In this document: positions 42,968 through 59,741 of the stretch, piece by piece | How the letters are laid out: each line of letters opens with the position of its first letter | Numbering within the stretch: position 1 is the stretch's first letter | Source: Chloroflexota bacterium | GTDB taxonomy: Bacteria; Chloroflexota; Limnocylindria; Limnocylindrales; CSP1-4 | NCBI GenBank assembly: GCA_003171065.1 | Contig: PMXQ01000089.1 | Span: 3,325-64,970, forward strand | Length of the DNA stretch: 61,646 nt | Reading direction: 5' to 3' | Notes under the pieces: generated by a model | Databases searched by the model: none | The model's input: the letters and a program-made list of their open reading frames with translations, nothing else | Told to the model about the DNA's origin: nothing | Program-made: the position numbers and the translations under genes

Positions 42968-43246
42968 GTGCTTGTGAGATCCATCGGTGAGGCAGCCGCG
43001 CAGGTCCGCGGTCGTCGGCTTAAGCTGCGCCTCAGCCAGGACCAGCTTGCACAGCGAGCCGGCGTGAGCCGGAAGTGGGTGTACGAGTTCGAGGCCGGTA
43101 AGCAGCACGCAGAGCTCGGACACCTTCTACGTGTGCTCGATGCTCTCGATCTCCAACTCGATGTCTCGCCGCGGAGTGCCTCGTCCGAGTCGACGCAGGG
43201 TACGGTCAATCTCGACGCGGTCCTCGAGCGGCACCGCGATGGCTAG
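42968..43246 (+). CDS. hipB: HipB-like XRE-family HTH antitoxin
   Basis: 92 aa with HTH LSQDQLAQRAGVSRKWVYEFEAG. Its stop overlaps the hipA ATG (ATGGCTAG). Confidence 0.8.
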   Translation: MLVRSIGEAAAQVRGRRLKLRLSQDQLAQRAGVSRKWVYEFEAGKQHAELGHLLRVLDALDLQLDVSPRSASSESTQGTVNLDAVLERHRDG

Positions 43247-44558
43247 GACGAGCGAACTTCCGGACACGCTCGTCGTGGTCCTCGGCGGCGTCGTCGCGGG
43301 CACACTCACGCGGCAGCCGAACGCGACGCTCCGCTTCGACTACGACGAGTCATATCAGGCCAATGCCGAGGCGACGCCGGTGTCGCTCTCGATGCCCCTT
43401 GCGGTGCGGACCCACCAGGATGGCCGCGGCCGGCGCATCGTCACCAACTTCCTCTGGGGGCTCCTACCAGAGAACGACGCGGTGCTTGAGCGTTGGGGAC
43501 GCCATTACCACGTGTCGACCTCATCGCCGTACCCGCTCCTCTCGACGCCTGTCGGCGAGGATTGCGCGGGCGGCGTCGCTTTCTGCCCACCTGACGATCT
43601 CCCACGCTTGCTCGACCGACAGGGGCTCGTCGACTGGCTCACAGACTCAGAGGTCGCCGGCAGGATCCGGGAGCTTCGCCGCGATCAGACGGCCTGGCTG
43701 GGCCGCACGTTTACGGGCCAGTTCAGCCTCGCTGGAGCGCAAGCCAAGACGGCGCTCCTGTACCGCGACGGACGATGGGGCGTCCCGTCCGGCGGGGCCG
43801 CCACGACCCACATTCTCAAGCCCGCGGTGGCCGGGCTCGACGATCACGATCTCAACGAGCATCTCTGCCTCGCTGCCGCCCGCCGCGCCGGGCTCGTGGC
43901 CGCGCGCTCCTGGGTCGGCACGTTCGAGGACCAGTCGGCCATCGTGGTCGAACGATACGACCGGATCGTCGAGGGAGATCTCGTGGTCCGTATCCACCAG
44001 GAGGACGTCTGCCAGGCTCTCGGAATCGCGCCTTCGGCGAAGTACCAGCGCGACGGCGGTCCCGCTCCGGCGGACATCGCCGGACTTCTCCGCCGCTGGG
44101 TTACACCTGCGGCCGCTGGGGACGACGCAGTTCGAAGGTTCGCCGACGCGCTCATCTGGAACTGGATCATCGCTGGCACGGACGCGCACGCGAAGAACTA
44201 CTCCATGCTTCTGTCGGGCCCCCAGGTTCGCCTGGCGCCGTTGTATGACGTGGCCTCGGCGCTTCCGTATGGGGCACACGAGAAGAAGCTCCGCTTTGCG
44301 ATGAAGATCGGTGGCGACTACGACGTGTACCCGCGATACAACCGCTGGCCGGCGGTGGCAAAGGAGCTCGGCCTGGATCCCGACCGCCTGGTCGATCGCG
44401 TGCGCGAGCTTGCCGCGGCTGCGCCGGACGCGCTCTCGGCCGCAACCGCCGATCCTGATGTCGAAGCGCTCGCGCGCCCGTTCCCGGCGAAGCTCGTCGA
44501 CTTGGCCGCCGAGCGGGCAAGGCGGTGCGGCGTTCTCGTCTCCGCGAACCCGGCATAG
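43239..44558 (+). CDS. hipA: HipA-family serine/threonine kinase toxin
   Basis: 439 aa from MARTSELPD. Has the HipA N-terminal coupling region, the FSLAGAQAKTAL motif and the catalytic GTDAHAKNYSMLL motif. Confidence 0.9.
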   Translation: MARTSELPDTLVVVLGGVVAGTLTRQPNATLRFDYDESYQANAEATPVSLSMPLAVRTHQDGRGRRIVTNFLWGLLPENDAVLERWGRHYHVSTSSPYPLLSTPVGEDCAGGVAFCPPDDLPRLLDRQGLVDWLTDSEVAGRIRELRRDQTAWLGRTFTGQFSLAGAQAKTALLYRDGRWGVPSGGAATTHILKPAVAGLDDHDLNEHLCLAAARRAGLVAARSWVGTFEDQSAIVVERYDRIVEGDLVVRIHQEDVCQALGIAPSAKYQRDGGPAPADIAGLLRRWVTPAAAGDDAVRRFADALIWNWIIAGTDAHAKNYSMLLSGPQVRLAPLYDVASALPYGAHEKKLRFAMKIGGDYDVYPRYNRWPAVAKELGLDPDRLVDRVRELAAAAPDALSAATADPDVEALARPFPAKLVDLAAERARRCGVLVSANPA

Positions 44559-44795: not shown

Positions 44796-46037
44796 CTATG
44801 AGCGACTAACTCGGCGGCTGGGGGCGTTCTTCATCACGTACCTGGCCCATTCCAGGCCGCCATTGGATCGGAGCCACTCCACGCAAAGTGCGAAGTCCGG
44901 GGCCTGGTCGAGCCTCGCCAACAGGCGGCCTCGGCTCTGGAGCCCATAGCGGTCCGCGAAGGCAAGGTACTGGCTCAGAGTGCGGCGAACCAGCCACGCG
45001 AATTCATTGACGAGACCCTCATCAATCGAGGGGGAATTCTCTCCGTGAACCGCCGCTGACCGAACCTTGTCGTACAAGAGGTATGTCTCACTGGGGTGCT
45101 CGAACCGGCCGTCGATGATGTGGCTCAGGACCATCTGCTTCAATGAAAGCTCGTGTCCCTTTTCAGTCGCGGACTTCCTGCCGAGCAGAGCCTCAAGAGC
45201 AAAGAACAGAAACAACAGAGATATGAGCGGCTCGCTAGCAAACATGGCTCGCTCGATCCAACGTGTTGCCAGATCGGCCTGCCTGTCCACGTCGGACTCT
45301 GGCTCAAGCGGCAGCCGTGCAACAGGCTGAATCTCCGCCAGACCGACAAGTCCAATGGAGAGCCCAAGGTCATAGGTGGCGGCAGGAGCTGATTGCCAGC
45401 CGGCAATGTGGCCGCCAAACGAGTACCCATCAGCCACTGTGAAGCGCAACTGTCGATCGTGAAGATTGAGATTCTCGTGTAGGGCAATTCTCAGCAGCCG
45501 GAGTGAGTGCTCAACGTTCGCGCGCGCCCTTGCAGCCATGCGCCCCAGGTCGGTGCCTTCGATTGCCACCTCGACGACGCATCCTACCGGCGGCTGGAGG
45601 CTGAACCGTCCAAGCGCAGGCGGGACCCGTTCGTCACTCACAGGAATGAAGCGCTGGCCCAAGAACGTGACTTCGGCGGCAACGGTCAGGTATTCGACCG
45701 TTAGGTAGCACAGGCGCCGCATGGGCACCTTTCCGTACGTGGAGACGAATGCGGGTACGTTGTCGCGGCTGCGATTGGCGCTGCACTCGAAGAGGAATGC
45801 GACCGCCGTTTCGCGGACTTTGTCGCGAAGATGCTCGAACCGAGGATCTCTTGCAAGGACGTACTCAAGATCGGCGAGCGCATCGTCCTGAGCCTTGCTC
45901 AACTCGATTTCCCCGTGCTCGGGGCCGTCGGGATGGTCGAAGCGCGCAACGGTGGCAATAGGGTGAGGAGCGGCCCGAACTGAACTCTGGAGCCGGGCCA
46001 GTAGGGCTTCGGAAGTTCCTAGTCGGGCCGTCACCAT
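44796..46037 (-). CDS. HEPN-domain protein (predicted RNase, Rx4H motif)
   Basis: 413 aa from MVTARLGT. The C-terminal helical domain carries RSAAVH (45045-45062), i.e. Rx4H. The N-terminal ~270 aa are unassigned, giving an ApeA-like architecture. Longer starts up to 46184 would overlap the NERD gene. Confidence 0.6.
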   Translation of the reverse strand: MVTARLGTSEALLARLQSSVRAAPHPIATVARFDHPDGPEHGEIELSKAQDDALADLEYVLARDPRFEHLRDKVRETAVAFLFECSANRSRDNVPAFVSTYGKVPMRRLCYLTVEYLTVAAEVTFLGQRFIPVSDERVPPALGRFSLQPPVGCVVEVAIEGTDLGRMAARARANVEHSLRLLRIALHENLNLHDRQLRFTVADGYSFGGHIAGWQSAPAATYDLGLSIGLVGLAEIQPVARLPLEPESDVDRQADLATRWIERAMFASEPLISLLFLFFALEALLGRKSATEKGHELSLKQMVLSHIIDGRFEHPSETYLLYDKVRSAAVHGENSPSIDEGLVNEFAWLVRRTLSQYLAFADRYGLQSRGRLLARLDQAPDFALCVEWLRSNGGLEWARYVMKNAPSRRVSRS

Positions 46038-46063
46038 CAGCCGATACTCACCGCGACCGGCGA

Positions 46064-47011
46064 CTATCCATTGGATGGTCGCCTCTGGCAGTCGTAGCAG
46101 AGGACCCGACCGGCGAAGCGCACCGCGTTCGCCTCGCAGTAGGCGGCAACCTTCGGGCTGACGAATGACCCGCAGGAGGCGCACGACTGACCCGGGGCCG
46201 CTCTCGCGACCGAGGCGGCAGGGGACATGGCTGCCACCGGCGTGGCAGCTACGGAAGCTAGGCCGAACCTAGCTGCCCAATCGACTTGACTAGGTCGATG
46301 AAGTGCGACTAACTGTCGGCCGATGTCCTCCAGCGTCCCCATGCTGACGAGGCGAGTGATCGAGCCCAAGGTGCCCAACGCACTCGTCTGGTCGATCTGC
46401 CTCTCTATTGTCGTGGCGATCTGGTCCACCTTGACGACCGTATCGAGCCCGTCGACCCGTGCTGCAGCAGCTCGGCTCCTCGGGCGCGAAATCCTGGCGC
46501 GGCTTGAAACGAGGATGAAGCTGCGCAGTCGAGGCTTGAGCTTCACGCCCAGCCGCCTGGGCAGCTTGACCAGGTCTTTGTCGAAAGCCTCGTTCAGAAC
46601 GACCATGTGCTTCCGATTCTGCTCGACAGGCGACGCGATGCCGTGCGACTTGCCGTTCCAGAAGGCGACCCATTCGCCCTGTTCGTTTACGCCGACCCCC
46701 TCGGCGAAGTGCTTGCTCTCGAACACCCATATCTCAAGCAAACGATCAAGAAGCAGATGGTCGATCTGTGCAACCCGTCCATCAACTTCGATCCGGATGT
46801 CGTGGATGACCATCAACTTGTCCGAGTCGCCGTAATGGAAGTCGATCTCGTATGCTGCTTCGCGCTCGCCGGCGAGACCTGCGCGGATATTGCGGATCTC
46901 TTGCTCGATTCTCTGCCTCGTGGATGCGTACAGATCAGTACGCATAAGAAGAGTCGTCAGAGCGTCAAGGTCATGTTGCTTGTCATCTGCGGACTTGATC
47001 AGCACCGCCAT
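46064..47011 (-). CDS. NERD (nuclease-related domain) protein with C-terminal zinc ribbon
   Basis: GEREAAYEIDFHYG...VIHDIRIEVDGRVAQIDHLLLDRLLEIWVFESKHF is a typical NERD core. C-terminal CASCGS...CYDCQ forms the zinc ribbon. Confidence 0.8.
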   Translation of the reverse strand: MAVLIKSADDKQHDLDALTTLLMRTDLYASTRQRIEQEIRNIRAGLAGEREAAYEIDFHYGDSDKLMVIHDIRIEVDGRVAQIDHLLLDRLLEIWVFESKHFAEGVGVNEQGEWVAFWNGKSHGIASPVEQNRKHMVVLNEAFDKDLVKLPRRLGVKLKPRLRSFILVSSRARISRPRSRAAAARVDGLDTVVKVDQIATTIERQIDQTSALGTLGSITRLVSMGTLEDIGRQLVALHRPSQVDWAARFGLASVAATPVAAMSPAASVARAAPGQSCASCGSFVSPKVAAYCEANAVRFAGRVLCYDCQRRPSNG

Positions 47012-47063: not shown

Positions 47064-49583
47064 TCACGAAGCCGCGGCCTCCTCCACTAGGAGTGGCCCA
47101 AAGCCTGAGCCCTCTGCGACCAAAGCCTCGAGCTTGTCCGCGTTGACTGGCTCAATGGAGGAGAACTCCCTCCCGGACACGGCTGCGAAGATCGGGCGGC
47201 CCAGCGCGATGGCAACGATAGCCCCGTCGGCGCGCAGCCGGACTCCGGCACCCCTTCGGTACGAGAGCGCTGCGCGGGCCAGAGCGACGGCGCGTGGGTC
47301 GGTTAGCACATTGCCGAGTCCTTGAGCGCTGACTTCCACTCCATACAAGGGGTGAGCGACCTTGTCGATCTTCACCTGTCCAGTCCCGAGTAGTGCCGAG
47401 ATTCGCTCACACCAGTGGTCGTCATCGGTGTAACTGGCCACGAAATCCAGCCGCGCCGATAGTGCATCCTCGGTCACCGCCGAACCGATGAGACTCGATG
47501 CCAGAGAGGCTGCTGCCGCCGATGGTCGGAAGACGCCCCAGGCGACACCCGGGATCAGAAACGGCTGCCACTCGAAGAAGGCGTCCGTACCGGCGTCCCG
47601 CAAGGCGGCATGAGCGAGTGCAGCGGCAACCTCCGGCGCCGGAGTCTCGGCCAGGGCGGCTAGGGCGGGCGCTCGCTCGTCCTCGGTCATACCGCCAAGG
47701 TATCCGGTGGCGCGTTCGCGCCTGATGAAGGCACCGAATAGGACCCCTAGCAGCTTCACCAGGCGATCGCGTTTGATCCAGCCCTGAGGCCAGATTTCCG
47801 CAATGGCACTCAGGAGGGCGCTGTAGTGCCGGACCTGCGCTGTCTCCCCGTACCACCTGGAGACTCGATTATCGGTCAACGCCAGCGACCAGCGAGCGAG
47901 GACGTTATAGGCGCGCAAGCCGACCTTCGGCTCGCCTGGGCCTTCGGACGGCGGCCGTTCCACGTGGGTCCCGTCGATTAGCCGGAGAACCGTGGGCGAC
48001 GGGGCGCGATGGAGCATCTCCTCCAGAAGCCAGAGGAGTTCGTCATCGGCAAACACACGATTGCCGAATCGGTGGTAACCGGCGGAGCGGGGGTCTGCGT
48101 CCAAGCCGTCGCGCAGGAGACGCTCCCAGAAGGTGTCGTCTACCTCGCCCTCATCGACTTCGCCAGCCTGGGCGTGACGCCCGGCCGGAGTATCTCCGAT
48201 ATCGAAGAGACCCAGGCTGTTGAGCCCCGCCATGAGACGTCCGAGCGGATGGTTCATATCCATCGCTTCCATCTCGCGAGGCCGATCTGGTCCGGGATCG
48301 CGGGAGCGAAGCGTCGCCTCAAGGTCGGCACGGATGTCGAGCGGCACCGAGTTGGAGAGGCGCTCGCCCGTGGTGTCTTCAAGCCAGACCAGGTCGGGAA
48401 TCTGGTCCCCCAGCATCTCGACCGAGACGCCGTCTTCAATGCCGACGCGAATTGATCCATCGGTTAGAAGGCCGGAGCCGGAGTCCGGCCTGGCCGCGAC
48501 AGTGATCCGGCGGTCGTAGCCGAGGGTAGCGGCGATCAGGCGGACCTTAGGCAAAGCCACCTCGGTCGAGCGCTTGAACTCGAACTGGTGCATTGACTCA
48601 ATCCCAAGCGGTGTCATCGTGGAGTCTGGCGGGACGAAAAGGGCCCTAGCGTCGCCCGACGTCATCTGCCAGACGACGCCCGCTTCGGCGTTCCCGGTCA
48701 GGGCAGTCTTCAGGAGCGCCGGTGAGGACGCGTTCGCGGAGCCCGAGAGGACGGTAGCGTTGTCTCCATCAAGGAGTCCGAACAGCTTGGCGTGGACGAA
48801 CTCCTGTGGTTCGGCCGCGAAGACCTGGTACGGCCGCCCTCCGGAATCCAGCAGGCCGACCAGCTTGGCCCCGTCCACGCTGGTCGGCAGGCCAAAGTAG
48901 CCGACGATCTTCCGCGGCTGGGAGCCTTCGATCAGGGCCGATAGTGCGGTCAACTCGGAATCGAAGAAGGGCGCCTCGAAATGCAGCTCGTCAATTGGTG
49001 CCGTGGCCCCGGCGCGACCTGCCATCCGTAGGAGCTGCTCCAAGATGGGGCTGCGCCAATTGGTGATGAACCGCGACCCTGTTGTGTCCGCTGGCAACCA
49101 GCGGACCTGCCCCAGTAGCGCGCCCCAGCGCAGGCGGAGCAGCGGCTCGTCCACGAAGGCCACCACCTCGTTCATCCACTCACGCCAAGATGCGAATGCG
49201 GGGCCGTCCTGCTCAGAGTGGAACCGGCAGTAGATCTCTTTGCCGTTGTCGAGGCCGCCGAAGCCGACGTTGCCCGAACCCACCAGGAGGACCCCCTCCC
49301 GGTCGTTGGCGAGGAGGATTGTCTTGGGGTGGAACACGCCTGCCGGCAGGGCGACGCCCCGTATCAGGTAGGTTCGACCTGCCCCTCGGATGCTCCACCG
49401 CTCGCCCGGCCCGATGCCCGCCCACGTCCGCGACAAGCGGTCCTGATCAGCCAGCACCACGATGTTTAGTGGCGGCTCGCCCAGCCGCCGGGCAAGAACC
49501 GTTTCGAGAAATGGCGGCTCGAAGGTGTACGTGGTCATCCAGCACACGGTCCAGCGGGCCGTGAATTCGGCGAGGACCTTCAT
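47064..49583 (-). CDS. PLD-family (HKD) predicted nuclease with ~500-aa unknown C-terminal region
   Basis: 839 aa from MKVLAEF. HKD motif 1 is FHPKTILLANDREGVLLVGSGNVG and HKD motif 2 is VHAKLFGLLDGDNATVLSGSANAS. The ATG overlaps the stop of the upstream gene (ATGA, 49580-49583). Confidence 0.8.
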   Translation of the reverse strand: MKVLAEFTARWTVCWMTTYTFEPPFLETVLARRLGEPPLNIVVLADQDRLSRTWAGIGPGERWSIRGAGRTYLIRGVALPAGVFHPKTILLANDREGVLLVGSGNVGFGGLDNGKEIYCRFHSEQDGPAFASWREWMNEVVAFVDEPLLRLRWGALLGQVRWLPADTTGSRFITNWRSPILEQLLRMAGRAGATAPIDELHFEAPFFDSELTALSALIEGSQPRKIVGYFGLPTSVDGAKLVGLLDSGGRPYQVFAAEPQEFVHAKLFGLLDGDNATVLSGSANASSPALLKTALTGNAEAGVVWQMTSGDARALFVPPDSTMTPLGIESMHQFEFKRSTEVALPKVRLIAATLGYDRRITVAARPDSGSGLLTDGSIRVGIEDGVSVEMLGDQIPDLVWLEDTTGERLSNSVPLDIRADLEATLRSRDPGPDRPREMEAMDMNHPLGRLMAGLNSLGLFDIGDTPAGRHAQAGEVDEGEVDDTFWERLLRDGLDADPRSAGYHRFGNRVFADDELLWLLEEMLHRAPSPTVLRLIDGTHVERPPSEGPGEPKVGLRAYNVLARWSLALTDNRVSRWYGETAQVRHYSALLSAIAEIWPQGWIKRDRLVKLLGVLFGAFIRRERATGYLGGMTEDERAPALAALAETPAPEVAAALAHAALRDAGTDAFFEWQPFLIPGVAWGVFRPSAAAASLASSLIGSAVTEDALSARLDFVASYTDDDHWCERISALLGTGQVKIDKVAHPLYGVEVSAQGLGNVLTDPRAVALARAALSYRRGAGVRLRADGAIVAIALGRPIFAAVSGREFSSIEPVNADKLEALVAEGSGFGPLLVEEAAAS

Positions 49584-51193
49584 TGGCCGAACGCTCGTGC
49601 CACCAGGGCCACGCCATCCGGAGTCAGGACCGTCTGCCCGTCTGCCGGCTGCCAGAACTCGATGTCCTTGGTCAGGCTCTTCAGGGTTCGTGCTCGGATG
49701 TTGCCCGGGTCCGTCCAAGAGAACGGGTGGCCGTAGAAGCGAAGGCTGCCCATCTCCCAGCGGAAGCGGAAAGTGAACTCCGGGAGCTTGGAGTATGCAA
49801 TACGTTCATGGGTCCGGATGACGAAATGGTTGAGAAGCCAGGCAAGGGACTCGGCAACCGTGGGGTTGTCGGCGAGGTGAAGATCGAACAGGGCCATCAT
49901 TCGAATCAGCCCGGGTTGCCATTCGCCGTCGATCCGGCCGAACTCGCCCCAGTCCGGCTCGGAGGCCTCGGCCTCAGGTAGAGCCGCCCGAACGAGGAGC
50001 ATATGGCAGATCCCGGCAACTGCGGATGTAGCCGCCCTCGGGTCAGCAACCAGGCTCGGCAGGTCGGCCGGCAAGAAGCCCAGCCTCAACTCTTCGTCGA
50101 GATCGCGGGTTAGCCGGCCGGCGTGGACGTCTATCTCAGACTCGCCCACCTTCACCTTGGCACTGGCCAGATCATTGATGGCACTGGCCAGCTCCTCGTG
50201 GGTAAGACCTGCTCCAGTGTCGCGGTTCAGCAGCGCAGGCCCGGCGTTCCGCCACACAATCATGAGTGCCATCTGGGCCCAATGGCCGGCTGCCACGACT
50301 GCCCAACGTGAGAGAGCGCGTGTGTACGCGGCTCCGACGATCCGCGGCGTCTCCACGAACGCCCGCCACGTTGCCCGCCGAAGGTCCTCGTCGGACGCGC
50401 CCACGTCTTTGTCGCGGCTCAGCAGATCGAGGAACAGGGCGATACCTTCTCGTCTGGCTCGAACCTCCGCCGGATCAACCGCAGGGTCCGGTTCAACGAG
50501 AACCTGACGTAGCAGGTCCCGTTCTTGCGGGAAGTCGACCAGCCGACAGAGACAGGCCTTCGAGGCGTACTCGACCAGCACCTCCTCGGGGATGGCCTCC
50601 TCGTTGTCGATGTAGCCCTCCATGACGTAGCGTGTGTCGGCGACCGCCTGGCCGAAGGCTTGGGCGAGGGCGGTGGCGCGGCCCGGGCGCCGTATGACGT
50701 CTACTGGCGTCGGGACTTCGCCCAACAGAGTCCCCGCAGGAGCCACGACGCCGAGCCTGCTCATCGGGCTGCCGTAGTAGAGACCGTATCCGCCGCCCTC
50801 GCTATCCACCGATATTCCCCGTTCATAGCTCGCAGGGCGAGTGGCAGTGGCGCGACCCGCGTTGTTTGCGCCGACGGCGCTGGAACCGCAGTGGTTCGGG
50901 CAAAGCTTGACGGCCAGCGCGTATTCGTAGTCGCGAGCCCTGACGTAGTTCTGGAGGGCCCTATTCGTGGGCGTGCGCCGCAGGTCTTCGTAGCGCTGCA
51001 GCAAGTACGCGTAGAACGAGAAGTATCGGGCTCTTTCCGAGAGGGCCAGGATGCCGGGCAGCAAGCGACCGATCACTCGATCCTGCGTGATCGTCTGGAT
51101 ACCGAGGGGGTCGCCACCGGTCTTGAAGAGGGACGAGCGCTCGATCCACTGCGGCCCGGTTGGGTTCGGCTCGCTCACGGCCCCGATCTCCAT
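49580..51193 (-). CDS. Unknown 537-aa protein, translationally coupled to the PLD gene
   Basis: Clean ORF with GAGAGG 5 nt before ATG 51193 (the track uses GTG 51199). Helix-rich composition, with the conserved-looking N-terminal block GGDPLGIQ...LLPGILALSERARYFSFYAYLL. No motif I can assign. Confidence 0.7.
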   Translation of the reverse strand: MEIGAVSEPNPTGPQWIERSSLFKTGGDPLGIQTITQDRVIGRLLPGILALSERARYFSFYAYLLQRYEDLRRTPTNRALQNYVRARDYEYALAVKLCPNHCGSSAVGANNAGRATATRPASYERGISVDSEGGGYGLYYGSPMSRLGVVAPAGTLLGEVPTPVDVIRRPGRATALAQAFGQAVADTRYVMEGYIDNEEAIPEEVLVEYASKACLCRLVDFPQERDLLRQVLVEPDPAVDPAEVRARREGIALFLDLLSRDKDVGASDEDLRRATWRAFVETPRIVGAAYTRALSRWAVVAAGHWAQMALMIVWRNAGPALLNRDTGAGLTHEELASAINDLASAKVKVGESEIDVHAGRLTRDLDEELRLGFLPADLPSLVADPRAATSAVAGICHMLLVRAALPEAEASEPDWGEFGRIDGEWQPGLIRMMALFDLHLADNPTVAESLAWLLNHFVIRTHERIAYSKLPEFTFRFRWEMGSLRFYGHPFSWTDPGNIRARTLKSLTKDIEFWQPADGQTVLTPDGVALVARAFGQ

Positions 51194-51259
51194 GGCCACC
51201 TCTCTGCGATGCGGTAACCGCCTACGATGTCGTCCGGGGGCAGCCTCGGCGACCGGTTC

Positions 51260-53530
51260 TCATCCCAAAGCGTCCAGCTTACGGATCAGAGCAGCTGTCT
51301 CAGGGTCGGGTTCAACGACCTCGGGTTCCTCTTCATGGCTGTATGACACCCAGCGGACGCCTCTGCTCTCGATACGATCGTAGAAGTAGACCGCATCCTG
51401 CACTGACTCAGGGCTTCGCCGCAGTCGAATGAGCGGCGCAAGTCTCAGCATCAGCGACGCGTCGTCCTCGATCAAGTACAGGCAGCCATCCTCAGGCCAG
51501 TCCCTCACCTTGACGGACCCGCGTCGGAACAGAGCCCTGGATCCAGTGAGGTGCTCTACGCTCGCGGAGATCACGCCGGCCTTTAGACTGCCCTGGCCAG
51601 CTCGGACGAGTTCCCATCCGGTGAAGGCGTCAGAAAGGGCCTCGCGAAGTCTGGCCAGAGTTCCCTCCGCCTGGGTCAATCGGCGCTCCCACTCCGCAGG
51701 TCCGACCACCGCCGCGTGCCCAATCCAGTTGCGCCGGTACTCGGCGGCTTCCTGCTCGAGCAGCCGCACAACCGCCTTGCTGGCGATGGCGTTCAGCCGC
51801 TCTATGTCTGAAAGAGCAAACAGCTCCTGGGCCTTGGTTGGATCCGAGGCAACGAGCTGACGAGTCTTGGCGGCCAGTCGAGCTAACAGGTTTGCCCAGA
51901 TACCAATCGATGCTCGGTCGTATGGGTCTTTCGCAGTTCCTCTCCGGATCGCGTCCTGAAGCAGTCCTGGGTCGCGCTCGAGAGCCGAATAGTGGATCTC
52001 GACGAGGACGACGACCAGGGCCTCGAACAGGTTCACTAAGAAGCGGCAGCGGCGCTCTGGATCGTCCGAGGCTCGGTAGCGCCAGATGACGGAAGCGAGC
52101 GGATACGGCAGTGACTCCATCCATCGCTCGAAGCCGTCTCCTTCGAGGACCCTACCCAGGCCCGCTTCGATCCTGGCGACGCTGAGCGGGCGATCCCACA
52201 GCTCCTTCTCGAGGGCTTGGAGACTCAGCCCCAGCTCAGAGAGTCGTGAACTAAGCCGCACGGTCGCGCGCTGCTGCTCAAGACTGGCGGGCAGGTAGAA
52301 CTCGCCCGCCGTCAGGCTCTCGATGGAGATCTGGGGGATCGTGGTCCCCGAAGTCAGCTGCCGGCGGACCCGCCGCCCGAGGGCCGAGCCAAGGAACGCC
52401 GCCACATACTCGCTCTCGGCGACCTCGGGGTTGATCTGCAGCTGGATATAGTTCTGCGATTTGATCTGGAACTGATCAGGCGAAGTCACGGCGGAAGACG
52501 TACCGAGCTTGGGCACGTATACGCAGTTGGGAAGCGATGGGAAAGGCTCGCCGCTGGCCGTCGGCCGCTTCACCGACACAGCCAGCTTCTCCACCGCGAT
52601 GGCCTGAAGTCCGCTTCGACGAGCGGCCTCGCGAAGTTCGAGCAGGGCGAAACTCTGTCTCGGCGGGACCAGATCCGTGCGCGGCACTAGGCGACCGAGC
52701 TCCGGGAGGGCTCCGTTGCGGCGCGCCCGTAGGTTGGCCAGCAGGATCTCCTGGTCAGCCTGGGCATCAACCTGACCCAGGAAGACCGAGTCCTGAGACT
52801 CCTGGGTGAGGACCACCACGTTCAACGGAATGGACAGTCCCGCGAACGTCCGGGTTGGCAGAGCAAGTACAGCTGTGATGCCGACTCCGACGGCCTGCAG
52901 ACAGGCTTGCGTCGATAGCCCGTCCGTAGTCCGAAGAAAGCCGTCCGGCAGCACCACAAGCATCGACCCGCCTGGGCTCAGCTTCAGCGCGGCTTGGACA
53001 ATCATCGTGTAGGTCGCGCTGGCCCTCAGGTTGAGACTTCGGTCTGGCACCGACAACGTTCTCGGTGGCAGACCCAGAGGAGGCGATCCAACGACGAGAT
53101 CGAACTGGCCGATGTCGGTGTCCAGAAGCTGCCCGGCGTCTCCGAGAAGCCATTCGATGCGGGGACTCGGGAACAGCTCGGCCGCCAGTTCGTGGACCTC
53201 AGTGTTGATCTCGATCCCGACACCCTGCTGAAGTCGACCGGCATCGTCGAAGTCTCGGAGCGTCAGACCCAACCCGGCCCACGGATCGAGTACGCGAAGG
53301 TCCGACCGATCGCCGGCCAGGGCAACCATGAAGTCGGCGACGAAGATCGGATCGGCGATTTCGGGGCCACTCCGGTCATCGGCTATGAGATGAGCGCAGT
53401 CCCGCCAGTCCTTGATGAAACCTTTCCGGATAGCTTCGCCAACCACGGCGACTGGCCCTGGGAAACGCGCGCCGCGGACATCGTCGGCGAGCTTCCACCG
53501 CAGCTCCGACCAGTTGACCGCGCTCTCCAT
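51260..53530 (-). CDS. N6-adenine-MTase-like domain fused to an HsdS-type target-recognition domain and a ~300-aa unknown C-terminal domain
   Basis: 756 aa. Motif I is VLDPWAGLG and motif IV is VVGSPPLG, with Leu where an aromatic residue is expected. TRD-like segment is AAFLGSALGRRVRRQLTSGTTIPQISIESL...LPASLEQQRATV. The ATG lies 15 nt downstream of the hsdR stop. Confidence 0.75.
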   Translation of the reverse strand: MESAVNWSELRWKLADDVRGARFPGPVAVVGEAIRKGFIKDWRDCAHLIADDRSGPEIADPIFVADFMVALAGDRSDLRVLDPWAGLGLTLRDFDDAGRLQQGVGIEINTEVHELAAELFPSPRIEWLLGDAGQLLDTDIGQFDLVVGSPPLGLPPRTLSVPDRSLNLRASATYTMIVQAALKLSPGGSMLVVLPDGFLRTTDGLSTQACLQAVGVGITAVLALPTRTFAGLSIPLNVVVLTQESQDSVFLGQVDAQADQEILLANLRARRNGALPELGRLVPRTDLVPPRQSFALLELREAARRSGLQAIAVEKLAVSVKRPTASGEPFPSLPNCVYVPKLGTSSAVTSPDQFQIKSQNYIQLQINPEVAESEYVAAFLGSALGRRVRRQLTSGTTIPQISIESLTAGEFYLPASLEQQRATVRLSSRLSELGLSLQALEKELWDRPLSVARIEAGLGRVLEGDGFERWMESLPYPLASVIWRYRASDDPERRCRFLVNLFEALVVVLVEIHYSALERDPGLLQDAIRRGTAKDPYDRASIGIWANLLARLAAKTRQLVASDPTKAQELFALSDIERLNAIASKAVVRLLEQEAAEYRRNWIGHAAVVGPAEWERRLTQAEGTLARLREALSDAFTGWELVRAGQGSLKAGVISASVEHLTGSRALFRRGSVKVRDWPEDGCLYLIEDDASLMLRLAPLIRLRRSPESVQDAVYFYDRIESRGVRWVSYSHEEEPEVVEPDPETAALIRKLDALG

Positions 53531-53545
53531 TGGACCGCCCCACTG

Positions 53546-56542
53546 CTAGGTTGCGTCGCCCGTTGCTCTTGCCTGCGTGAACACCCGCCGCAGGTAGTGG
53601 TTCATCACGATCGACTGGAACGCCGGGTCATCGAGGATGCGCTGGAAGATGTCCTGGTTGTCATCCATGCGGCCGACGATGCTCTTGATGAAGGCGTCCG
53701 CGAAGACGAGCTTGAAGTTCTCGATCGGGTTGGCGCGCGCCTGGGCGACCAGCTGCTCGTCGCCGAGCCAGGTCGCTTCCATCTGGTCGAAGAAGAGCTG
53801 ATCGGCCGGACCGAGTGCCGTGCCGAAGTGGTCGTTGAGCACTGAGATGATCGCGGACAGGCGCTCCTGCTCTTCCTCGGTCTGCTTGCCTTCGCCTGAG
53901 TAGATGGCCTTCAGCTCGCCCGTGCCCTTGTCTGGACCGATGTCGCCCTCGCCGGTCTTCTCCAGGCGCAGGTGCGTCAGCTCCACCTCCGAGCCGAGGT
54001 CGAGACGGCCGCCACCCTCGGACGGCAGCAGCGACTGCAGCGCACGGCTGGTCAGATACAGGGCCTCTAGGAAGACATCGCCGAAGTCCACGACCTGGCT
54101 GAGGAACGAGTAGGCGCGGACGAACTGATCGAGAGCGTCGCGGACCTCATCCTGCTCCTCGGGTCGCTTGGCCTTGAACCGCTCCACGGCCGGTGCCAAC
54201 TGCGCGTACACGGCGCCGTGGTCGCTGACCTTCTTACTCCGGTCGGCGATGAGCGCGGCCACGGCGCGCGCCTCCACGTCGTCGAGCACCTGAAGCGAGA
54301 GCAGCCGGTCGGCGAGGTCGTGGAGGAGGTTCGGGTCGGTCGGCTCCGCCACGGTCGTCTCATACCAGGGCGCGAATGCCTCGGTGATCGCCTCGGCCTC
54401 GTTTCGGAAGTCGAGTACGAACGTGTCGTTCTTCTCGGGATGGATCCGGTTGAGACGGCTCAGCGTCTGGACCGCGGCCAGCCCAACGAGCGTCTTGTCG
54501 ACGAACATCGTGTGCAGGAGAGGCTGGTCGTAACCGGTCTGGAACTTCTCGGCCACGATCAGGACGCCGAACTCCGGCCCGCCGAACTGGGCCGCGGTCT
54601 GCGACTCGGGGAAGCCGTTCATTCCGGATTCGCTGAAGTCGATGCCGGCGTCGTCCACCTTGCCGGAGAAGGCCACGAGTGCACGGGTGTCGGAGTAGCC
54701 GTGCTCGGCGATGTAGCGGTCGATGGCCTGCTTGTAGCGGACGGCGTGCAGGCGCGAGCTGGTCACTACCATCGCCTTGCCCTTGCCGCCGATCTTGTGG
54801 CGGGTGTGCTCGCGGAAGTGCTCGACGATGATCTCGGCCTTCTGGGAGATGTTGTGCGGGTGCAGCGAGACGAAGCGGGCGATCGACCGGCGCGCTCGGC
54901 GTTTCTCATAGACCGGGTCGTCGCTGACCGCCTTGCCGACCTTCCAGTACAGCTTGTAGGTCGTGTAGTTAGCCAGCACATCGAGGATGAAGCCCTCCTC
55001 GATGGCCTGGCGCATCGAGTACAGATGGAAGGGCACATGCACGCCGTCCGCGTTCAGCCGGCCGAATAGCTCAAGCGTCCGTCCCTTGGGCGTCGCGGTG
55101 AAGGCGAAGAACGAGAGGTTCGGTTGGTGGCCACGAGCGGCCACGGTAGAGGCGAGGGCGTCCTGTGGATCGGGCGGCGTGGCTGTGGCGTCAGCCTGCT
55201 CGGCGAGGGCGAGCTGCGCCTCGATCGAGGCAGAGCCGAGAGCCGCCTTCAGGTCCTTGGCGGCCTCGCCGGTCTGGCTCGAGTGCGCCTCGTCCACGAT
55301 GACCGCGAAGCGCCGATGGCCGAGGTTCTTGACCTTGTCAAGCGTGAAGGGGAACTTCTGGAGAGTCGTGATGACGATCCGGAACTGGTCACCCATGAGC
55401 GCGTCGGCCAGCTGCGTGCTGTCCTGCAGAAGCGGCGTGACCACGCCGGTAGCGTGCTCGAACTGGAAGATCGTCTCCTGGAGTTGGCGATCGAGGATGA
55501 CCCGGTCGGTTATCACCACGACCTTGTCGAAGACCGGATGATCGTCCAGGCCGTGCAGCGACATCAAGCGATGAGCGAGCCAGGCGATCGTATTGGACTT
55601 GCCGGAACCGGCCGAATGCTGGACGAGGTAGCTCCGTCCCGAGCCTTCTTCGCGCGCCGCCGCCTCCATCCTACGGACGGCGTCCCACTGGTGATAGCGC
55701 GGGAAGATCGTTGAGCCCGAACGCATCTTCGCGGCATGGGTCGATCCTTCGCCGGGCACGACGTGGATGAAGCGGCCCAGCAGGTCGAGCCAGGCGTCGC
55801 GAGCCCAGACTTGCTCCCAGAGGTATCGCGTCCGGTGGCCGTCGGGGTCGGGCGGGTTGCCCTTGCCGCCGGCGTTGCCCCGATTGAACGGCAAGAAGCC
55901 CGTCTTCTCGCCTGCGAGCCGCGTCGTCATCTCGACCGACTCGGGATCGACCGCGAAGTGCACCAGCGCCCGCCGGCCCAGGGTGACGTTGGCCGGGTCG
56001 CGATCGGTGCGGTACTGGTGCTTGGCGTGCTCGACGGTCTGGTGCGTGAGCGGGTTCTTCAGCTCTGCTGTCGCGACCGGGATGCCGTTGACGAAGAGGC
56101 ACAGATCGAGGGTCTTCGCCGCCGTCGGCTCGTATGGGAGCTGGCGGGTGACAGTGAGGCGGTTCGCGAGGTATCGCTCGGTCAGCTCGGGCGTGAGGCC
56201 GTGGGCCGGCTTGAAGAACGCCACGCGCACCTCGATGCCGTGGTCGTTGACGCCATGCCGCAGGACGTCGACCGTGCCGCGTTCGTCGATCTGCTTGGCC
56301 AGTCGATCGGCGAACTGTTGGTGCGCGCCGACCTCGCCGCCGTGAACCGCGACGAGACGCTCCCACACCTTGGGCTGCGTCTCGACCATGAAGGCGAACA
56401 GCTCGGCCGTGTCGAGCCCGCGGGTCCGATCGAAGTCCGCGGACCACTCGGGCTTGGTGCCCCATTTGCAGACGCGGTATCCACCCCGCTCGGCGAGGCT
56501 AACCGTGATCGCATCCTCGAAACCGCGCTCCGACACCGTCAT
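53546..56542 (-). CDS. hsdR: Type I restriction enzyme R subunit
   Basis: 998 aa from MTVSERGFEDAI. Walker A SAGSGKSNT, DEAH box VIVDEAHSSQTG, and type I R N-terminal nuclease and C-terminal domains. The ATG overlaps the hsdS stop (ATGA). The track ORF is over-extended to 56896. Confidence 0.9.
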   Translation of the reverse strand: MTVSERGFEDAITVSLAERGGYRVCKWGTKPEWSADFDRTRGLDTAELFAFMVETQPKVWERLVAVHGGEVGAHQQFADRLAKQIDERGTVDVLRHGVNDHGIEVRVAFFKPAHGLTPELTERYLANRLTVTRQLPYEPTAAKTLDLCLFVNGIPVATAELKNPLTHQTVEHAKHQYRTDRDPANVTLGRRALVHFAVDPESVEMTTRLAGEKTGFLPFNRGNAGGKGNPPDPDGHRTRYLWEQVWARDAWLDLLGRFIHVVPGEGSTHAAKMRSGSTIFPRYHQWDAVRRMEAAAREEGSGRSYLVQHSAGSGKSNTIAWLAHRLMSLHGLDDHPVFDKVVVITDRVILDRQLQETIFQFEHATGVVTPLLQDSTQLADALMGDQFRIVITTLQKFPFTLDKVKNLGHRRFAVIVDEAHSSQTGEAAKDLKAALGSASIEAQLALAEQADATATPPDPQDALASTVAARGHQPNLSFFAFTATPKGRTLELFGRLNADGVHVPFHLYSMRQAIEEGFILDVLANYTTYKLYWKVGKAVSDDPVYEKRRARRSIARFVSLHPHNISQKAEIIVEHFREHTRHKIGGKGKAMVVTSSRLHAVRYKQAIDRYIAEHGYSDTRALVAFSGKVDDAGIDFSESGMNGFPESQTAAQFGGPEFGVLIVAEKFQTGYDQPLLHTMFVDKTLVGLAAVQTLSRLNRIHPEKNDTFVLDFRNEAEAITEAFAPWYETTVAEPTDPNLLHDLADRLLSLQVLDDVEARAVAALIADRSKKVSDHGAVYAQLAPAVERFKAKRPEEQDEVRDALDQFVRAYSFLSQVVDFGDVFLEALYLTSRALQSLLPSEGGGRLDLGSEVELTHLRLEKTGEGDIGPDKGTGELKAIYSGEGKQTEEEQERLSAIISVLNDHFGTALGPADQLFFDQMEATWLGDEQLVAQARANPIENFKLVFADAFIKSIVGRMDDNQDIFQRILDDPAFQSIVMNHYLRRVFTQARATGDAT

Positions 56543-57747
56543 GCGGCCACTCCGGGTATCTGCAGCTGGCCGGTGACGGCCGCCGTTATCAACGCGTGGC
56601 GGCGCTCCTGGAGGAGATTCACCTGCTGGGCCTGCGCGGCGCGCAAGCTGTGCACTTGGGCTAGCTGCCACTCCAGGGCTTGGACTGTGGCACGCTGAAC
56701 CTGGACGTCTGGCGCCGGTACTCGAAGAGCCGAGAGGGACTCCGTGTTGAAGTGGGCCTGTAGTGCCCCGACGGACTCCTCGGCTATCTGCCCTCGCACG
56801 AAATGGGAGTTGAGCACCAGTTCCAGGAAACGCGGCAACAGGCGCGAGGTTCTGCGAACGATCAGCAGGTCGACGCAGTTGCCACCATCCAGCCATTCCG
56901 GCACAACGGCAGCTGCGCCTGCGTTCCCCGTTCTGACCACGATCACGTCGCCCGCGTGAAGCCTTGACTTGGCGTTGGCCTCGTTGGCCTCGTCGCTGAT
57001 GAAGGTGATGCCCTCGTCACTGACCTCCCCAGGTGACACGTTGAAGCCCCGGACACAAGGAGCACCAGAGTCCGCGTACAGCTCGGAGGGCCGCACCACG
57101 ATCCCTACCGTCGTTTCCGCGATCCACTTGATGGGCACCAATGGCCAATCCTGGCCTGTGATCGAGAGCGTGGCCAATGCCTCAGCGCGTTCGTCTAGGA
57201 GTCGTACCATCTGCTGCCGATCGGCAACCAGCTCGTCGATCCGCGCCGTCTCGGCGTCTAGGTAGTCCGCGATCGAACGTTGCAAGGCCAACGGCCACGA
57301 TGGAACCGCCAAAGCTGCAACGGCCTCCTGACGCAGACCGAACCTGGTAACGCCAGTTGCAGCAACCTCCAACTGAGATCGGCATCCACGAGATGACAAC
57401 GCCCAACGGAGGTACCTGCCGTCCACGTCGGATCTGGGCCGGATCAAGGCCAGGTGATAGCCGGAGACCACCCCAGGCAGGTTCACTCTCACGCAAGCAG
57501 AGACGCCGATGTCCTCAGCAGTTTCAGAGTCCTTGGTCAGAAGAACGTCACCCTGCTTCAGCTCGAAGTCCCGAACCTGCTCAACGGTCGCGGAAGCCTC
57601 CATGAACTCCAGTCCGGGGCCTATGTACTCGTTGTAGTAGACGTCCACGTAGTTGCAAATCTGAACGCGGACCTGACCGTCAACGGTCTTCTTGTCGACC
57701 GAGCTGAACCTCACTTCAGCCAGGTGTGCCAAGCGTCGATCTGTCAC
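56539..57747 (-). CDS. hsdS: Type I restriction-modification specificity subunit
   Basis: 402 aa. Two TRD halves are separated by conserved helical spacers (QRSIADYLDAETARIDELV; QRATVQALEWQLAQVHSL). The GTG start overlaps the hsdM stop. Confidence 0.85.
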   Translation of the reverse strand: MTDRRLAHLAEVRFSSVDKKTVDGQVRVQICNYVDVYYNEYIGPGLEFMEASATVEQVRDFELKQGDVLLTKDSETAEDIGVSACVRVNLPGVVSGYHLALIRPRSDVDGRYLRWALSSRGCRSQLEVAATGVTRFGLRQEAVAALAVPSWPLALQRSIADYLDAETARIDELVADRQQMVRLLDERAEALATLSITGQDWPLVPIKWIAETTVGIVVRPSELYADSGAPCVRGFNVSPGEVSDEGITFISDEANEANAKSRLHAGDVIVVRTGNAGAAAVVPEWLDGGNCVDLLIVRRTSRLLPRFLELVLNSHFVRGQIAEESVGALQAHFNTESLSALRVPAPDVQVQRATVQALEWQLAQVHSLRAAQAQQVNLLQERRHALITAAVTGQLQIPGVAA

Positions 57748-59741
57748 GCGGTCACCTCGCCAAGGAGCCGCTGGATCTCCTCCTCCAACGCCTTGATCTC
57801 CGCGTCGATCTCCGCGAGAGGCCGCGGCGGGACGTAGCGATAGAACTGGCGGGTGAGCGGGATCTCGTAGCCGGCCTTCGTCTTGGCGTGATCGACCCAG
57901 GCGTCGGGCACATACGGCAGGACTTCGGCCGCCATGTAGGCATCGACCGCTGATCGGTAAGGTGCGGTCGACAGTCGCTCCGTCGGATCAGGCTCGAAGC
58001 CGGACGTCGGACTGGGCAGCGGAACGTTCTCGTTGTCGCGTAGGTCCGGGTCGGGCTCGGGGTGGCCCTTCCGATCCGTGATGACCGGCGCTTCGGGTTC
58101 GCGAACGGAGATCGCCTCCCAGACGGCCTTCTCAATCGCCTTCGGTAGCGGGCCTAGCTTTCGAGCAACTGCCGTGCGATCGGTGGACGAGAAGCCAGCC
58201 AGGTGTTCGAGCAGTTCTACCAACGCGAGGCGCTCTGGCTCGGTCAGCTTCGTCCAACCCGGCGATGTCTGGATCGCCGGCAGCGTGTCCGCGGTGACCC
58301 CGTACCGCAACCGGAGCGGCCGCTCGACCGTGATGCGCTGGTAGCCAAACGATTCGTTGGGCAGGATCTTGACGCGCTCGCCCTCCTCGAAGTCGCCATA
58401 CAGGCGGGTAATCTCGGCGATCTGCTCAAGGCTGATCTCGTTGCGCTTGTTGCCAAGGCTCTTGCGCATCTTCACGAAGGACTCGCGGGCATCAACGAGC
58501 TGGATCTTGCCGCGGCGCTCGGGGCGCTTGCGGTTGGTCACGATCCAGAAGTAGGTACTGATGCCGGTGTTGTAGAAGAGCTGATCTGGGAGCGCCACTA
58601 TGCCTTCGAGCCAATCGTTCTCGATGATCCACCGGCGGATCTCGCTCTCGCCCGAGCCCGCGGCGCCGGTAAAGAGCGGCGAGCCATTGAAGACGATCGC
58701 CAGGCGGCCACCGCCCTCGTCGGGGCGCTTAAGCTTGCTGATCATGTGCTGCAGGAACAGGAACGAGCCGTCGTTAATCCGAGGCGTGCCGGCGCCAAAG
58801 CGGCCGGCGAAGCCAAGCTTCTCGTGCTCAGCCTCGACCACGTCGGCGACCTTCTTCCACTCGACCCCGAATGGCGGATTGGCGAGCAGGTAGTCATACC
58901 GCTCGCCTGGGAAGGCGTCCTCGCTGAAGCTGTTGCCGAAATGGATGTTCGCGCCGGGCTGGTTCTTGAGCATCATGTCCGCCCGACAGACTGCGTACGT
59001 CTCGGCGTTGAGTTCCTGGCCGAATGCGATCAGCTGACCGTCTGGATTGTGGTCAGCCACGTACTCCTGGCTCACAGAAAGCATTCCGCCAGTCCCGCAC
59101 GCGGGATCGAGCATCGTCCGAACAATGCCCGGCGTGCGCAGGATGTCGTCGTCCTCGATGAACAGCAGGTCGACCATGAGGCGGATGACTTCGCGCGGCG
59201 TGAAGTGCTCGCCCGCCGTCTCGTTGCTCAGCTCGGAGAACTTGCGCAGCAGCTCCTCGTAGATGTAGCCCATCTCGACGTTGCTGACCTTGTCCGGGTG
59301 GAGGTCGACCTCGGTCACCTTGGAGAGGACGAGGTACAGCAACTTGGCGCGGTCGAGGCGACCGATCTGGGCGTCGAAGTCGAACTTCTCGATGACGTCG
59401 CGCGTCTCGGGGTCGAAGGCGGCGATCCAGGCGCGCAGATTGCCGGCAACCTGGGGCGGGTCCGCCAGGATGCGGTGAAGGGTAAGTGGGCTGGTGTTGT
59501 ACGCCTCGACGCCCGTCAGGGTCTTCAGGACGACGTTCCGCGCGTTATCGCTCTCTATCGCCTTGGCCCGCGCGAGCACCTGAGGCTTCGTGGGCTCAAG
59601 CACGCAGTCGAGGCGGCGTAGTAGGACCAGAGGCAGGATGACCTTCTGGTATTCAGCGCGCTTGTAGTCGCCGCGAAGCAGGTCAGCGATGGCCCAGATG
59701 AGCCCGGCGTGATTGTTGATTGCGGCTCTGACCTCAGCCAC
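57744..59741 (-). CDS. hsdM: Type I restriction-modification methyltransferase subunit
   Basis: 665 aa. HsdM N-terminal domain (LIWAIADLLRGDYKRAEYQKVILPLVLLRRLD), motif I MLDPACGTGGML and motif IV LLANPPFGVEW. Confidence 0.9.
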   Translation of the reverse strand: MAEVRAAINNHAGLIWAIADLLRGDYKRAEYQKVILPLVLLRRLDCVLEPTKPQVLARAKAIESDNARNVVLKTLTGVEAYNTSPLTLHRILADPPQVAGNLRAWIAAFDPETRDVIEKFDFDAQIGRLDRAKLLYLVLSKVTEVDLHPDKVSNVEMGYIYEELLRKFSELSNETAGEHFTPREVIRLMVDLLFIEDDDILRTPGIVRTMLDPACGTGGMLSVSQEYVADHNPDGQLIAFGQELNAETYAVCRADMMLKNQPGANIHFGNSFSEDAFPGERYDYLLANPPFGVEWKKVADVVEAEHEKLGFAGRFGAGTPRINDGSFLFLQHMISKLKRPDEGGGRLAIVFNGSPLFTGAAGSGESEIRRWIIENDWLEGIVALPDQLFYNTGISTYFWIVTNRKRPERRGKIQLVDARESFVKMRKSLGNKRNEISLEQIAEITRLYGDFEEGERVKILPNESFGYQRITVERPLRLRYGVTADTLPAIQTSPGWTKLTEPERLALVELLEHLAGFSSTDRTAVARKLGPLPKAIEKAVWEAISVREPEAPVITDRKGHPEPDPDLRDNENVPLPSPTSGFEPDPTERLSTAPYRSAVDAYMAAEVLPYVPDAWVDHAKTKAGYEIPLTRQFYRYVPPRPLAEIDAEIKALEEEIQRLLGEVTA

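Follow-up and report, generated by a model that had tools for sequence, protein, structure and literature searches.

A putative two-gene, distantly Azaca-like defense cassette within a defense island of a Chloroflexota bacterium

A 61,646-nucleotide (nt) stretch from a Chloroflexota bacterium (contig PMXQ01000089.1; hereafter, the window) contains three consecutive, co-directional minus-strand genes, here called genes 1, 2, and 3, that follow a Type I restriction-modification (R-M) operon, hsdMSR. Genes 2 and 3 alone form a conserved unit; the trio does not. It is moderately probable that these two genes constitute a two-subunit, helicase-less defense cassette distantly resembling Azaca, and that the island holding them is a row of three modules on one strand: hsdMSR, a solitary gene 1 encoding a fusion of a methyltransferase (MTase), a target-recognition domain (TRD), and a C-terminal domain, and the translationally coupled gene 2-gene 3 cassette. 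A preliminary description of the same DNA had treated the three genes as one module, pairing a modification component with a nuclease of the phospholipase D (PLD) family. Conservation across genomes lends no support to that pairing and detaches gene 1 from the other two.

Gene 2 (49580..51193, minus strand) encodes 537 amino acids (aa) and gene 3 (47064..49583, minus strand) 839 aa, both counted from ATG, and they are the first and second genes of the conserved pair, respectively. Read on the minus strand, positions 49583-49580 are ggccaATGAaggtc, in which the TGA stop codon of gene 2 overlaps the ATG of gene 3 (an ATGA stop/start overlap at 49580..49583). A Shine-Dalgarno-like GAGAGG stretch lies 5 nt 5' of the gene 2 ATG, and the gene 2 open reading frame (ORF) can be extended to an alternative GTG start at 51199. 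Genes 1, 2, and 3 each have full-length homologs of 30-70% identity in unrelated assemblies and are therefore real genes rather than artifactual ORFs of high-GC DNA. Their GC content at third codon positions (GC3) is 0.74-0.77, compared with a regional GC content of ~0.64.

Loci with gene 2 relatives were drawn from one-genome-per-species contigs (42), from metagenomes (80), and, in several cases, from exact-protein look-ups, and linkage of the pair was established by tblastn together with all-against-all clustering of neighboring ORFs. Wherever the contig continues, a gene 3 homolog stands directly after gene 2 on the same strand, an adjacency that holds in essentially all of the ~90 loci. 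The hosts are mostly Actinomycetota and Chloroflexota, with the addition of a Polaromonas plasmid. No third conserved gene emerged beside the pair from the neighbor clustering, in which the two pair clusters were the only ones common to most loci. A four-nucleotide NTGA stop/start overlap is kept in 76 of 82 loci even though the proteins are only 27-45% identical to those of the window. This conservation across diverged proteins is strong evidence of selection for coupled translation, and it bears out the coupling of genes 2 and 3 that the preliminary description had read from the ATGA overlap.

The family is large. A profile search with gene 2 against 1.84 billion representative proteins (a 50%-identity library) returned 1623 clusters at E<=1e-3, a number that shrinks to 921 at E<=1e-10 and to 239 at E<=1e-30. 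Sources that name proteins of the pair call all of them hypothetical, except for one gene 3 relative labeled "HKD family nuclease", and the pair is not described in the searchable literature on DUF6361, Azaca, or PLD accessory genes of BREX, DISARM, and Type I systems. A distant version with a 4-nt overlap is found on plasmid pPNAP03 of Polaromonas naphthalenivorans CJ2 (L133; NC_008759.1 161630-165822), where it encodes proteins of 553 aa and 844 aa (WP_011798398.1 and WP_011798397.1, both annotated as hypothetical); among 72,556 plasmids, pPNAP03 is the sole one with the pair. In several assemblies, the gene 3 homolog is split or truncated (L135:11579-13171, L136:3665-6044, and L051:10835-13394). 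These copies are frameshifts or pseudogenes, or else long-read assembly errors, and the pair may decay in some lineages.

Encoded proteins and their relation to Azaca

Residues ~1-335 of the gene 3 protein form a two-lobed PLD core in one chain, in which the motif HxK...GSxN appears twice (FHPK...GSGN and VHAK...GSAN). Both motifs had been picked out in the preliminary description; they are present in the translation, and Foldseek recovers the two-lobed PLD fold around them. Beyond the core, the AlphaFold2 (AF2) model (pLDDT 86.2) predicts a beta-rich region (~345-420), a low-confidence linker (~477-550), a helical region (~552-732), and a C-terminal alpha/beta region (~737-839). The C-terminal ~500 residues diverge fast, and a distant Chloroflexota clade aligns over the first ~300 residues only. 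In 35 homologs, the invariant residues are H85, K87, G102-S103-G104-N105, and E116 in lobe 1, and H264, K266, G281, S282, N284, N298, and E300 in lobe 2; the canonical HKD Asp (K+5) is unconserved in either motif. A set of invariant H, K, N, and E residues lacking Asp is the HKN pattern of Tdp1-type enzymes.

Database searches with gene 3 gave few matches. Pfam and NCBIfam yielded only a sub-threshold PLDc_2, the sole PADLOC match was ZacB (1.4e-6), and a profile search for sequence relatives in the Protein Data Bank (PDB) found nothing relevant. In the Foldseek comparison of the core (~1-400) with the PDB, Tdp1 was the best match (E 6e-9, TM-score normalized to the target ~0.52); further matches were PPK1 (polyphosphate kinase C-domains), SauUSI, vaccinia F13, NgoAVII, and BfiI. 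On sequence and model together, gene 3 is predicted to encode a Tdp1-like two-lobed PLD-superfamily phosphodiesterase with its catalytic set intact. Its likeness to Tdp1, SauUSI, BfiI, and NgoAVII lies in the fold of residues ~1-400 and, for Tdp1, also in the H/K/N/E set without Asp. It differs from all four in domain context and in the lack of detectable sequence similarity, and it has neither the helicase domain of SauUSI nor the B3-like DNA-binding domain of BfiI.

This resemblance invites a different explanation, in which gene 3 is a Tdp1-like hydrolase of phosphotyrosyl protein-DNA adducts with no endonuclease activity and gene 2 is its adaptor. The targets would be relaxase- or terminal-protein-linked DNA of plasmids, linear replicons, and phages, or the function would be repair of trapped topoisomerases or relaxases. 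All of the top 24 Foldseek matches are human Tdp1 (E 6e-9 to 9e-8, target-normalized TM-score ~0.5), each lobe has the invariant H, K, N, and E without the HKD Asp, and some loci lie on or near conjugative elements (TrwC in L049, L024, and L044; plasmid pPNAP03). However, the top rank of Tdp1 may simply reflect a well-sampled, single-chain, two-lobed PLD protein, and the PLD restriction nucleases SauUSI, BfiI, and NgoAVII match as well. Moreover, the nearest sequence relative, ZacB, belongs to a DNA-cleaving complex, and the genomic context is one of phage-defense islands, not of repair operons. A Tdp1-like role of this kind is consequently considered improbable.

Gene 2 is more obscure. Its protein combines a ZacA/DUF6361-like N-terminal region (~28-121) with a family-specific, mostly alpha-helical body, and the preliminary description had found no recognizable motif in it. 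That assessment holds for Pfam and NCBIfam, neither of which gave a match, but not for PADLOC, in which ZacA is the only model matched (1.6e-5, 22.7 bits; residues 28-121 against profile positions 32-120 of 396). ZacA and no other PADLOC model is likewise matched by 25 of 30 diverse members of the gene 2 family. DUF6361 is the top Pfam family among gene 2 relatives, yet it is found in 2 of 30 members, at 0.003 or weaker. The AF2 model of gene 2 (pLDDT 88.6, pTM 0.88) is mostly alpha-helical, and Foldseek found no fold relative in the PDB better than E 0.87. Structure comparison, one of the checks that had been suggested, therefore placed the gene 3 core in the PLD fold and left gene 2 with no PDB relative.

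No Walker A motif is present in any of the 30 gene 2 family members or in the gene 3 homologs. The idea of a helicase or ATPase hidden in gene 2 or gene 3 was rejected: 65 sequences lack Walker A, and Foldseek returned no P-loop NTPase for the AF2 model of either protein.

The system closest to the pair is Azaca, which was reportedly described by Millman et al. in 2022. It consists of ZacA (DUF6361), ZacB (PLD), and ZacC, a superfamily 2 (SF2) helicase, and cleavage of T4 DNA in vitro requires all three Zac proteins as well as the Walker A motif of ZacC (bioRxiv 10.1101/2025.07.10.664194; 10.1101/2024.10.26.620412). Like Azaca, the pair has a PLD gene with two lobes preceded, in identical order, by another gene, here only remotely and partially DUF6361-like. 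ZacA and ZacB are the only PADLOC families that genes 2 and 3 match, the context is again phage defense, and joint action of the components in one complex is expected. The pPNAP03 homologs repeat these matches (ZacA 1.5e-5; ZacB 2.8e-11 across both PLD lobes). Gene 3 corresponds to ZacB in its remote homology, its PLD fold, and its position beside a ZacA-like gene.

The differences are substantial. Neither the ZacC SF2 helicase nor any other P-loop protein occurs in the cassette or is conserved nearby: there is no third conserved gene across the ~90 loci, and ZacC was not seen among the scanned neighbors, including the 25 commonest of the 187 families matched by 56 large unlabeled neighbors. 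Gene 2 has 537 aa against 396 positions in the ZacA profile, and only its N-terminal ~90 residues align, whereas gene 3 has 839 aa against 586 positions in the ZacB profile, with ~500 extra C-terminal residues. The similarity of the pair falls far below the acceptance level of PADLOC for Azaca, and its taxa are mainly Actinomycetota and Chloroflexota. The pair thus appears to be most like Azaca yet outside Azaca proper, since it has no ZacC and matches ZacA only in part. The preliminary statement that the trio matches no named system is accordingly right in that no complete system covers the genes, and too strong in that genes 2 and 3 match ZacA and ZacB, weakly but family-wide. The profile searches suggested at that stage, when run on all three proteins, gave only these weak ZacA and ZacB matches for genes 2 and 3 and domain-level matches for gene 1.

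In a distantly Azaca-like cassette, the gene 2 and gene 3 proteins would assemble into a complex of fixed stoichiometry, like ZacABC. The phosphodiesterase effector would be gene 3, cutting invading DNA through a phospho-histidine intermediate. Sensing of the target, or regulation, would fall to gene 2 and the rapidly diverging C-terminal half of gene 3 instead of a helicase. Because the pair is also found alone, the cassette would be autonomous, and it would often have joined methylation-based systems at their 3' end, adding a second layer. Several points weigh against this explanation. The homology to ZacA and ZacB is weak (E ~1e-5 to 1e-11) and, for gene 2, covers ~90 of 537 residues. The helicase Walker A is essential for Azaca cleavage in vitro, so a helicase-less version may work quite differently. 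Given the missing canonical Asp and the best fold matches to Tdp1, the substrate of gene 3 could differ from a plain DNA backbone. That the pair forms a complex, has nuclease activity, and acts against phages is in each case a prediction, and its frequent operon-like fusion to R-M-like systems may mean that it is non-autonomous at those loci.

Defense systems adjoining the pair

Neighbors of the pair were typed with Pfam and PADLOC in representative loci and by BLAST to those references in the others. A system combining an MTase with a translocase lies within 10 kb in 26 of the 49 non-redundant loci that have at least 5 kb of flank, as a raw count; L049 and L064 would add two. At ~16 independent loci, the system ends in a gene that is co-directional with the pair and either lies at most 80 nt from it or overlaps it by 4 nt. 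The last genes that precede the pair are varied and comprise HsdR, YgjP, DrmC, DUF499, the UvrD of a Type III system, a IIG MTase, and a reverse transcriptase (RT) after BREX.

The adjoining systems are equally diverse. Type I R-M stands beside the pair in the window and in L001, L009, L010, L017, L018, L019, L049, L064, L065, L091, and L092, and Type III R-M in L042. A complete DISARM system, DrmMI-DrmA-DrmB-DrmC followed by the pair, is found in L024, and DrmA-DrmB-DrmC only in L117, where the contig is cut upstream. Further combinations are a DruE-like helicase with a DpdE/DrmD SNF2 protein and a Type IIG-like MTase (L050, L060, L099, L036, and others), a PLD-SNF2 helicase with a IIG MTase (L002, L020, and L112), a DUF1156 MTase with a DUF499 ATPase (L007 and L026), and SMC/mad3-like ATPases (L012, L040, and L126). 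BREX, with PglZ and BrxL verified, occurs in L031 and L035. The remaining large neighbors include DRT-associated helicases, GajB-like proteins, NERD-UvrD, pAgo, Wadjet, and IIG enzymes. The pair sits alone among ordinary genes in the genome of a Nocardioides (L134), and likewise on plasmid pPNAP03.

Some of these loci have peculiarities of their own. The DUF1156 MTase adjacent to the pair in L026 (L026:1787-5809) has an internal match to an IS200-like Y1 transposase domain (3.8e-9), an odd fusion or insertion. Between the BREX operon and the pair lie a Schlafen/AlbA_2 protein and a reverse transcriptase in L031 (L031:6451-9954), and a 428-aa protein of no assigned family in L035 (L035:8642-9928); in both loci, accessory modules are stacked along a single strand. 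PglX is the assumed identity of a 1135-aa gene that lies upstream of PglZ at these two loci.

The association with R-M systems is suggestive, but its specificity is not established. It underlies a second explanation, namely that the pair is an accessory or back-up effector of the neighboring R-M, BREX, DISARM, or BREX-related system, either using its SF2 translocase or triggered when phage anti-restriction proteins inhibit it. The frequency of such systems within 10 kb and the operon-like placement behind their last gene point in this direction. So do the good representation of rarer systems (DISARM, BREX, and DUF1156/DUF499) and the presence, in every partner system, of a translocase or helicase that is absent from the pair. 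Auxiliary or back-up nucleases have been published for BREX loci in general, in a survey of 2026 that does not include the pair among them (PMC12839542). Conversely, the partner systems are mechanistically unrelated, which makes a single physical interface unlikely, and the adjacency counts are raw, with no control for general clustering in defense islands. In addition, L134, L133, L005, L011, L014, and others have no such system within 9-10 kb, and the pair is sometimes divergent from the neighboring system across a gap of 450-500 nt (L050 and L060). An accessory role is thus possible but doubtful.

A related and rather unlikely idea is that the pair is a portable plug-in nuclease that has shed its helicase and works through the translocase of its host system (HsdR, Res, DrmA/DrmD, BrxL/BrxH, or the helicase of the DUF499 system). 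If this were true, the pair would turn the stalling or activation of those systems, or a block imposed on them by anti-restriction proteins, into DNA destruction. The pair would then be an effector layer common to mechanistically different methylation-based systems, including BREX, in which the killing step is unclear. Adjacency to such diverse methylation-based systems leaves some functional link possible, even though the MTase-TRD gene is not a partner of the pair.

DISARM with DrmC, PLD-SNF2 systems, and DrmD-type systems resemble the present arrangement in placing a PLD enzyme beside a large MTase and SF2 helicases, and the pair adjoins DISARM or DISARM-like clusters in L024, L117, L002, L020, L036, L050, L099, and L112. 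However, the window has no DrmA or DrmB match in Pfam or PADLOC, and gene 3, unlike DrmC, combines both lobes in one chain of ~850 aa and has a partner of its own. The DISARM of L024 is complete without counting the pair. Gene 3 was also considered as a DrmC substitute, and this was rejected: L024 and L117 keep their own DrmC (236-266 aa) besides the pair. For BREX, no PglZ, BrxC, or BrxL match was found among the window proteins scanned (31-61 kb), and BREX genes adjoin the pair in L031 and L035 only. The earlier observation that hallmark partners of DISARM and BREX are missing therefore stands; the cassette has no DrmA/B, PglZ, BrxC/L, or SNF2 partner. In the Type I operon of the window, HsdM, HsdS, and HsdR are all present and sufficient, and genes 1, 2, and 3 are additions rather than components.

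Gene 1 and the surrounding island

Gene 1 (51260..53530, minus strand; 756 aa) is separate from the pair. Its protein consists of an N6-adenine-MTase-like region (~50-270), a single HsdS-like TRD (~340-475), and a conserved C-terminal domain (~480-756), and the outline of this architecture in the preliminary description proved accurate. Motif I, VLDPWAGLG, is present in the translation, and LDPWAGLG is conserved in the family alignment. The MTase region matches Pfam N6_Mtase just above the cut-off (22.3 against 20.4 bits) and PADLOC mad2 (7.9e-17); mad5 is matched at 5.9e-7, and HsdM, TaqI, and BsaXI are the PDB sequence matches of the MTase part. Many PADLOC Specificity_I matches at residues 342-433, together with S-subunits in the PDB, identify the TRD, whereas the C-terminal ~280 aa matched nothing in Pfam or among PDB sequences. 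The N-terminal domain is predicted to adopt a gamma-class N6-adenine MTase-like fold.

Motif IV of gene 1 (residues ~148-152) is GSPP. In the family alignment, PP is invariant. Before it stands S, replaced by F or Q in three members; after it stands L, I, V, M, P, T, or N, with one member having F and none Y or W. A motif IV without the aromatic residue is atypical of active N6A or N4C MTases. For this reason, methylation by gene 1 is uncertain. The C-terminal domain carries an invariant YRxNWIGH (Rx5H, residues ~598-605), whose resemblance to the HEPN signature is a lead only; gene 1 could combine an RNase with an MTase-like sensor that is inactive. In the three-module arrangement favored here, it would act separately, probably as a sequence-specific DNA-binding or methylating module with an output of undefined kind.

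Gene 1 also recalls MADS, in that its MTase domain matches mad2 and its single TRD resembles those of HsdS and mad5. The likeness remains at the level of domains: a MADS locus comprises mad1-mad8, with mad2 and mad5 as separate proteins, while the window has no further mad genes and gene 1 has no recognized nuclease domain and scores 19.4 bits against NCBIfam MAD5 (cut-off 400). Gene 1 differs from MADS, HsdM, and Type IIG enzymes alike in the missing aromatic of motif IV and in a 280-aa C-terminal domain unique to its family.

The placement of the three genes gives some grounds for regarding them as one system, with the MTase-TRD protein providing recognition or self-marking and the PLD enzyme restricting. 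They are consecutive and co-directional, with gaps of 15, 66, and -4 nt counted gene by gene from hsdR and no terminator-like site between them; the arrangement is kept in L003, L053, and L054, and the pair often lies beside some MTase-containing system. Nevertheless, these three loci, the only ones among the ~90 in which gene 1 accompanies the pair, share 95-98% identity with the window and count as one lineage rather than as independent support. None of the ~85 other pair loci has a gene 1 homolog. Four loci from three lineages have gene 1 without the pair: upstream of hsdMSR (L045/46), alone (L047), and between GmrSD and Hachiman (L048). The gene 1 family is also small, with 20 clusters found as opposed to hundreds for gene 2. 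Absent from independent pair loci, and with homologs of its own that lack the pair, gene 1 is an independent module outside the conserved pair. The three-gene model is largely refuted by this lack of co-occurrence and is judged very improbable. The neighborhood survey that the preliminary description had recommended thus gave a split result, in that gene 2 relatives do co-occur with a PLD gene while the MTase-TRD gene is not conserved.

The coordinates of the three minus-strand genes and their 15-nt distance from hsdR, both given in the preliminary description, are exact on an ORF check, with the ATG of gene 1 extending to 53530 and the stop codon of hsdR beginning at 53546. Upstream on the same strand, the complete hsdMSR operon (53546..59741), a separate system, comprises hsdM (57744-59741), hsdS (56539-57747), and hsdR (53546-56896), as identified by Pfam and PADLOC. 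HsdM matches MTase_I (860 bits), HsdS matches Specificity_I (7.6e-67), and HsdR matches REase_I (3.9e-34), HSDR_N, and SWI2_SNF2. In its longest ORF, hsdR shares 358 nt with hsdS. Because hsdR homology begins only at about residue 86-245, the true start is probably near 56540, which would give an overlap with hsdS of the 4-nt type. No terminator-like site was found on the minus strand from hsdM to the NERD-domain gene that follows the pair, and the island genes are possibly one long transcription unit.

The NERD-domain gene (46064..47011, minus strand; Pfam NERD 4.8e-14) begins 52 nt 3' of gene 3 and is followed by a gene for a 462-aa protein without a family match (44796-46184, minus strand). 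A NERD gene after the pair is seen only in this lineage (L054 and L003), and both genes together behind the pair also only there (L054). Elsewhere in the island are a 1994-aa Avs1b-like protein (34596-40580, minus strand; PADLOC Avs1b 4.6e-23 and a weak AAA_16; GC3 0.68, below that of its neighbors), which is a candidate antiviral STAND NTPase, and a HipA-family kinase toxin (43131-44558, plus strand; HipA_C 4e-49, Couple_hipA 2e-17). At the other end lies a gene for a 533-aa protein (59713-61314, plus strand) whose C-terminal part is a Schlafen AlbA_2 domain (2e-16); the longest ORF of this gene overlaps the 5' end of hsdM, which runs on the minus strand.

The window is therefore dense in defense-type genes from ~34 kb to its end (Avs1b-like, HipA, NERD, genes 3-2-1, hsdMSR, and Schlafen), in agreement with the earlier view of a defense locus. 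Over the same interval, GC content falls from ~0.71 to 0.62-0.66, a drop consistent with a horizontally acquired island. In other parts of the window, GC content is 0.71-0.74 at 1-7 kb and 30-33 kb, with a separate low-GC patch (~0.60) at 7-10 kb. The 61,646 nt contain no tRNA gene. The pair accordingly sits in an acquired defense island.

Implications

The gene 2-gene 3 pair is a large family that PADLOC v2, Pfam, and NCBIfam leave unnamed, and it is found in defense islands of Actinomycetota and Chloroflexota, phyla in which few defense systems have been tested. It is not DISARM, BREX, or MADS, nor is it part of a Type I enzyme. If the pair is active, a ZacA-type protein and a PLD enzyme work without the helicase that Azaca needs, and such a helicase-less pair would help to define the role of the enigmatic DUF6361 protein; the fold of gene 2, moreover, has no solved relative. 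The repeated attachment of the pair to mutually unrelated methylation-based systems (Type I and Type III R-M, DISARM, BREX, and operons related to BREX) provides a concrete setting in which layered or back-up immunity can be tested.

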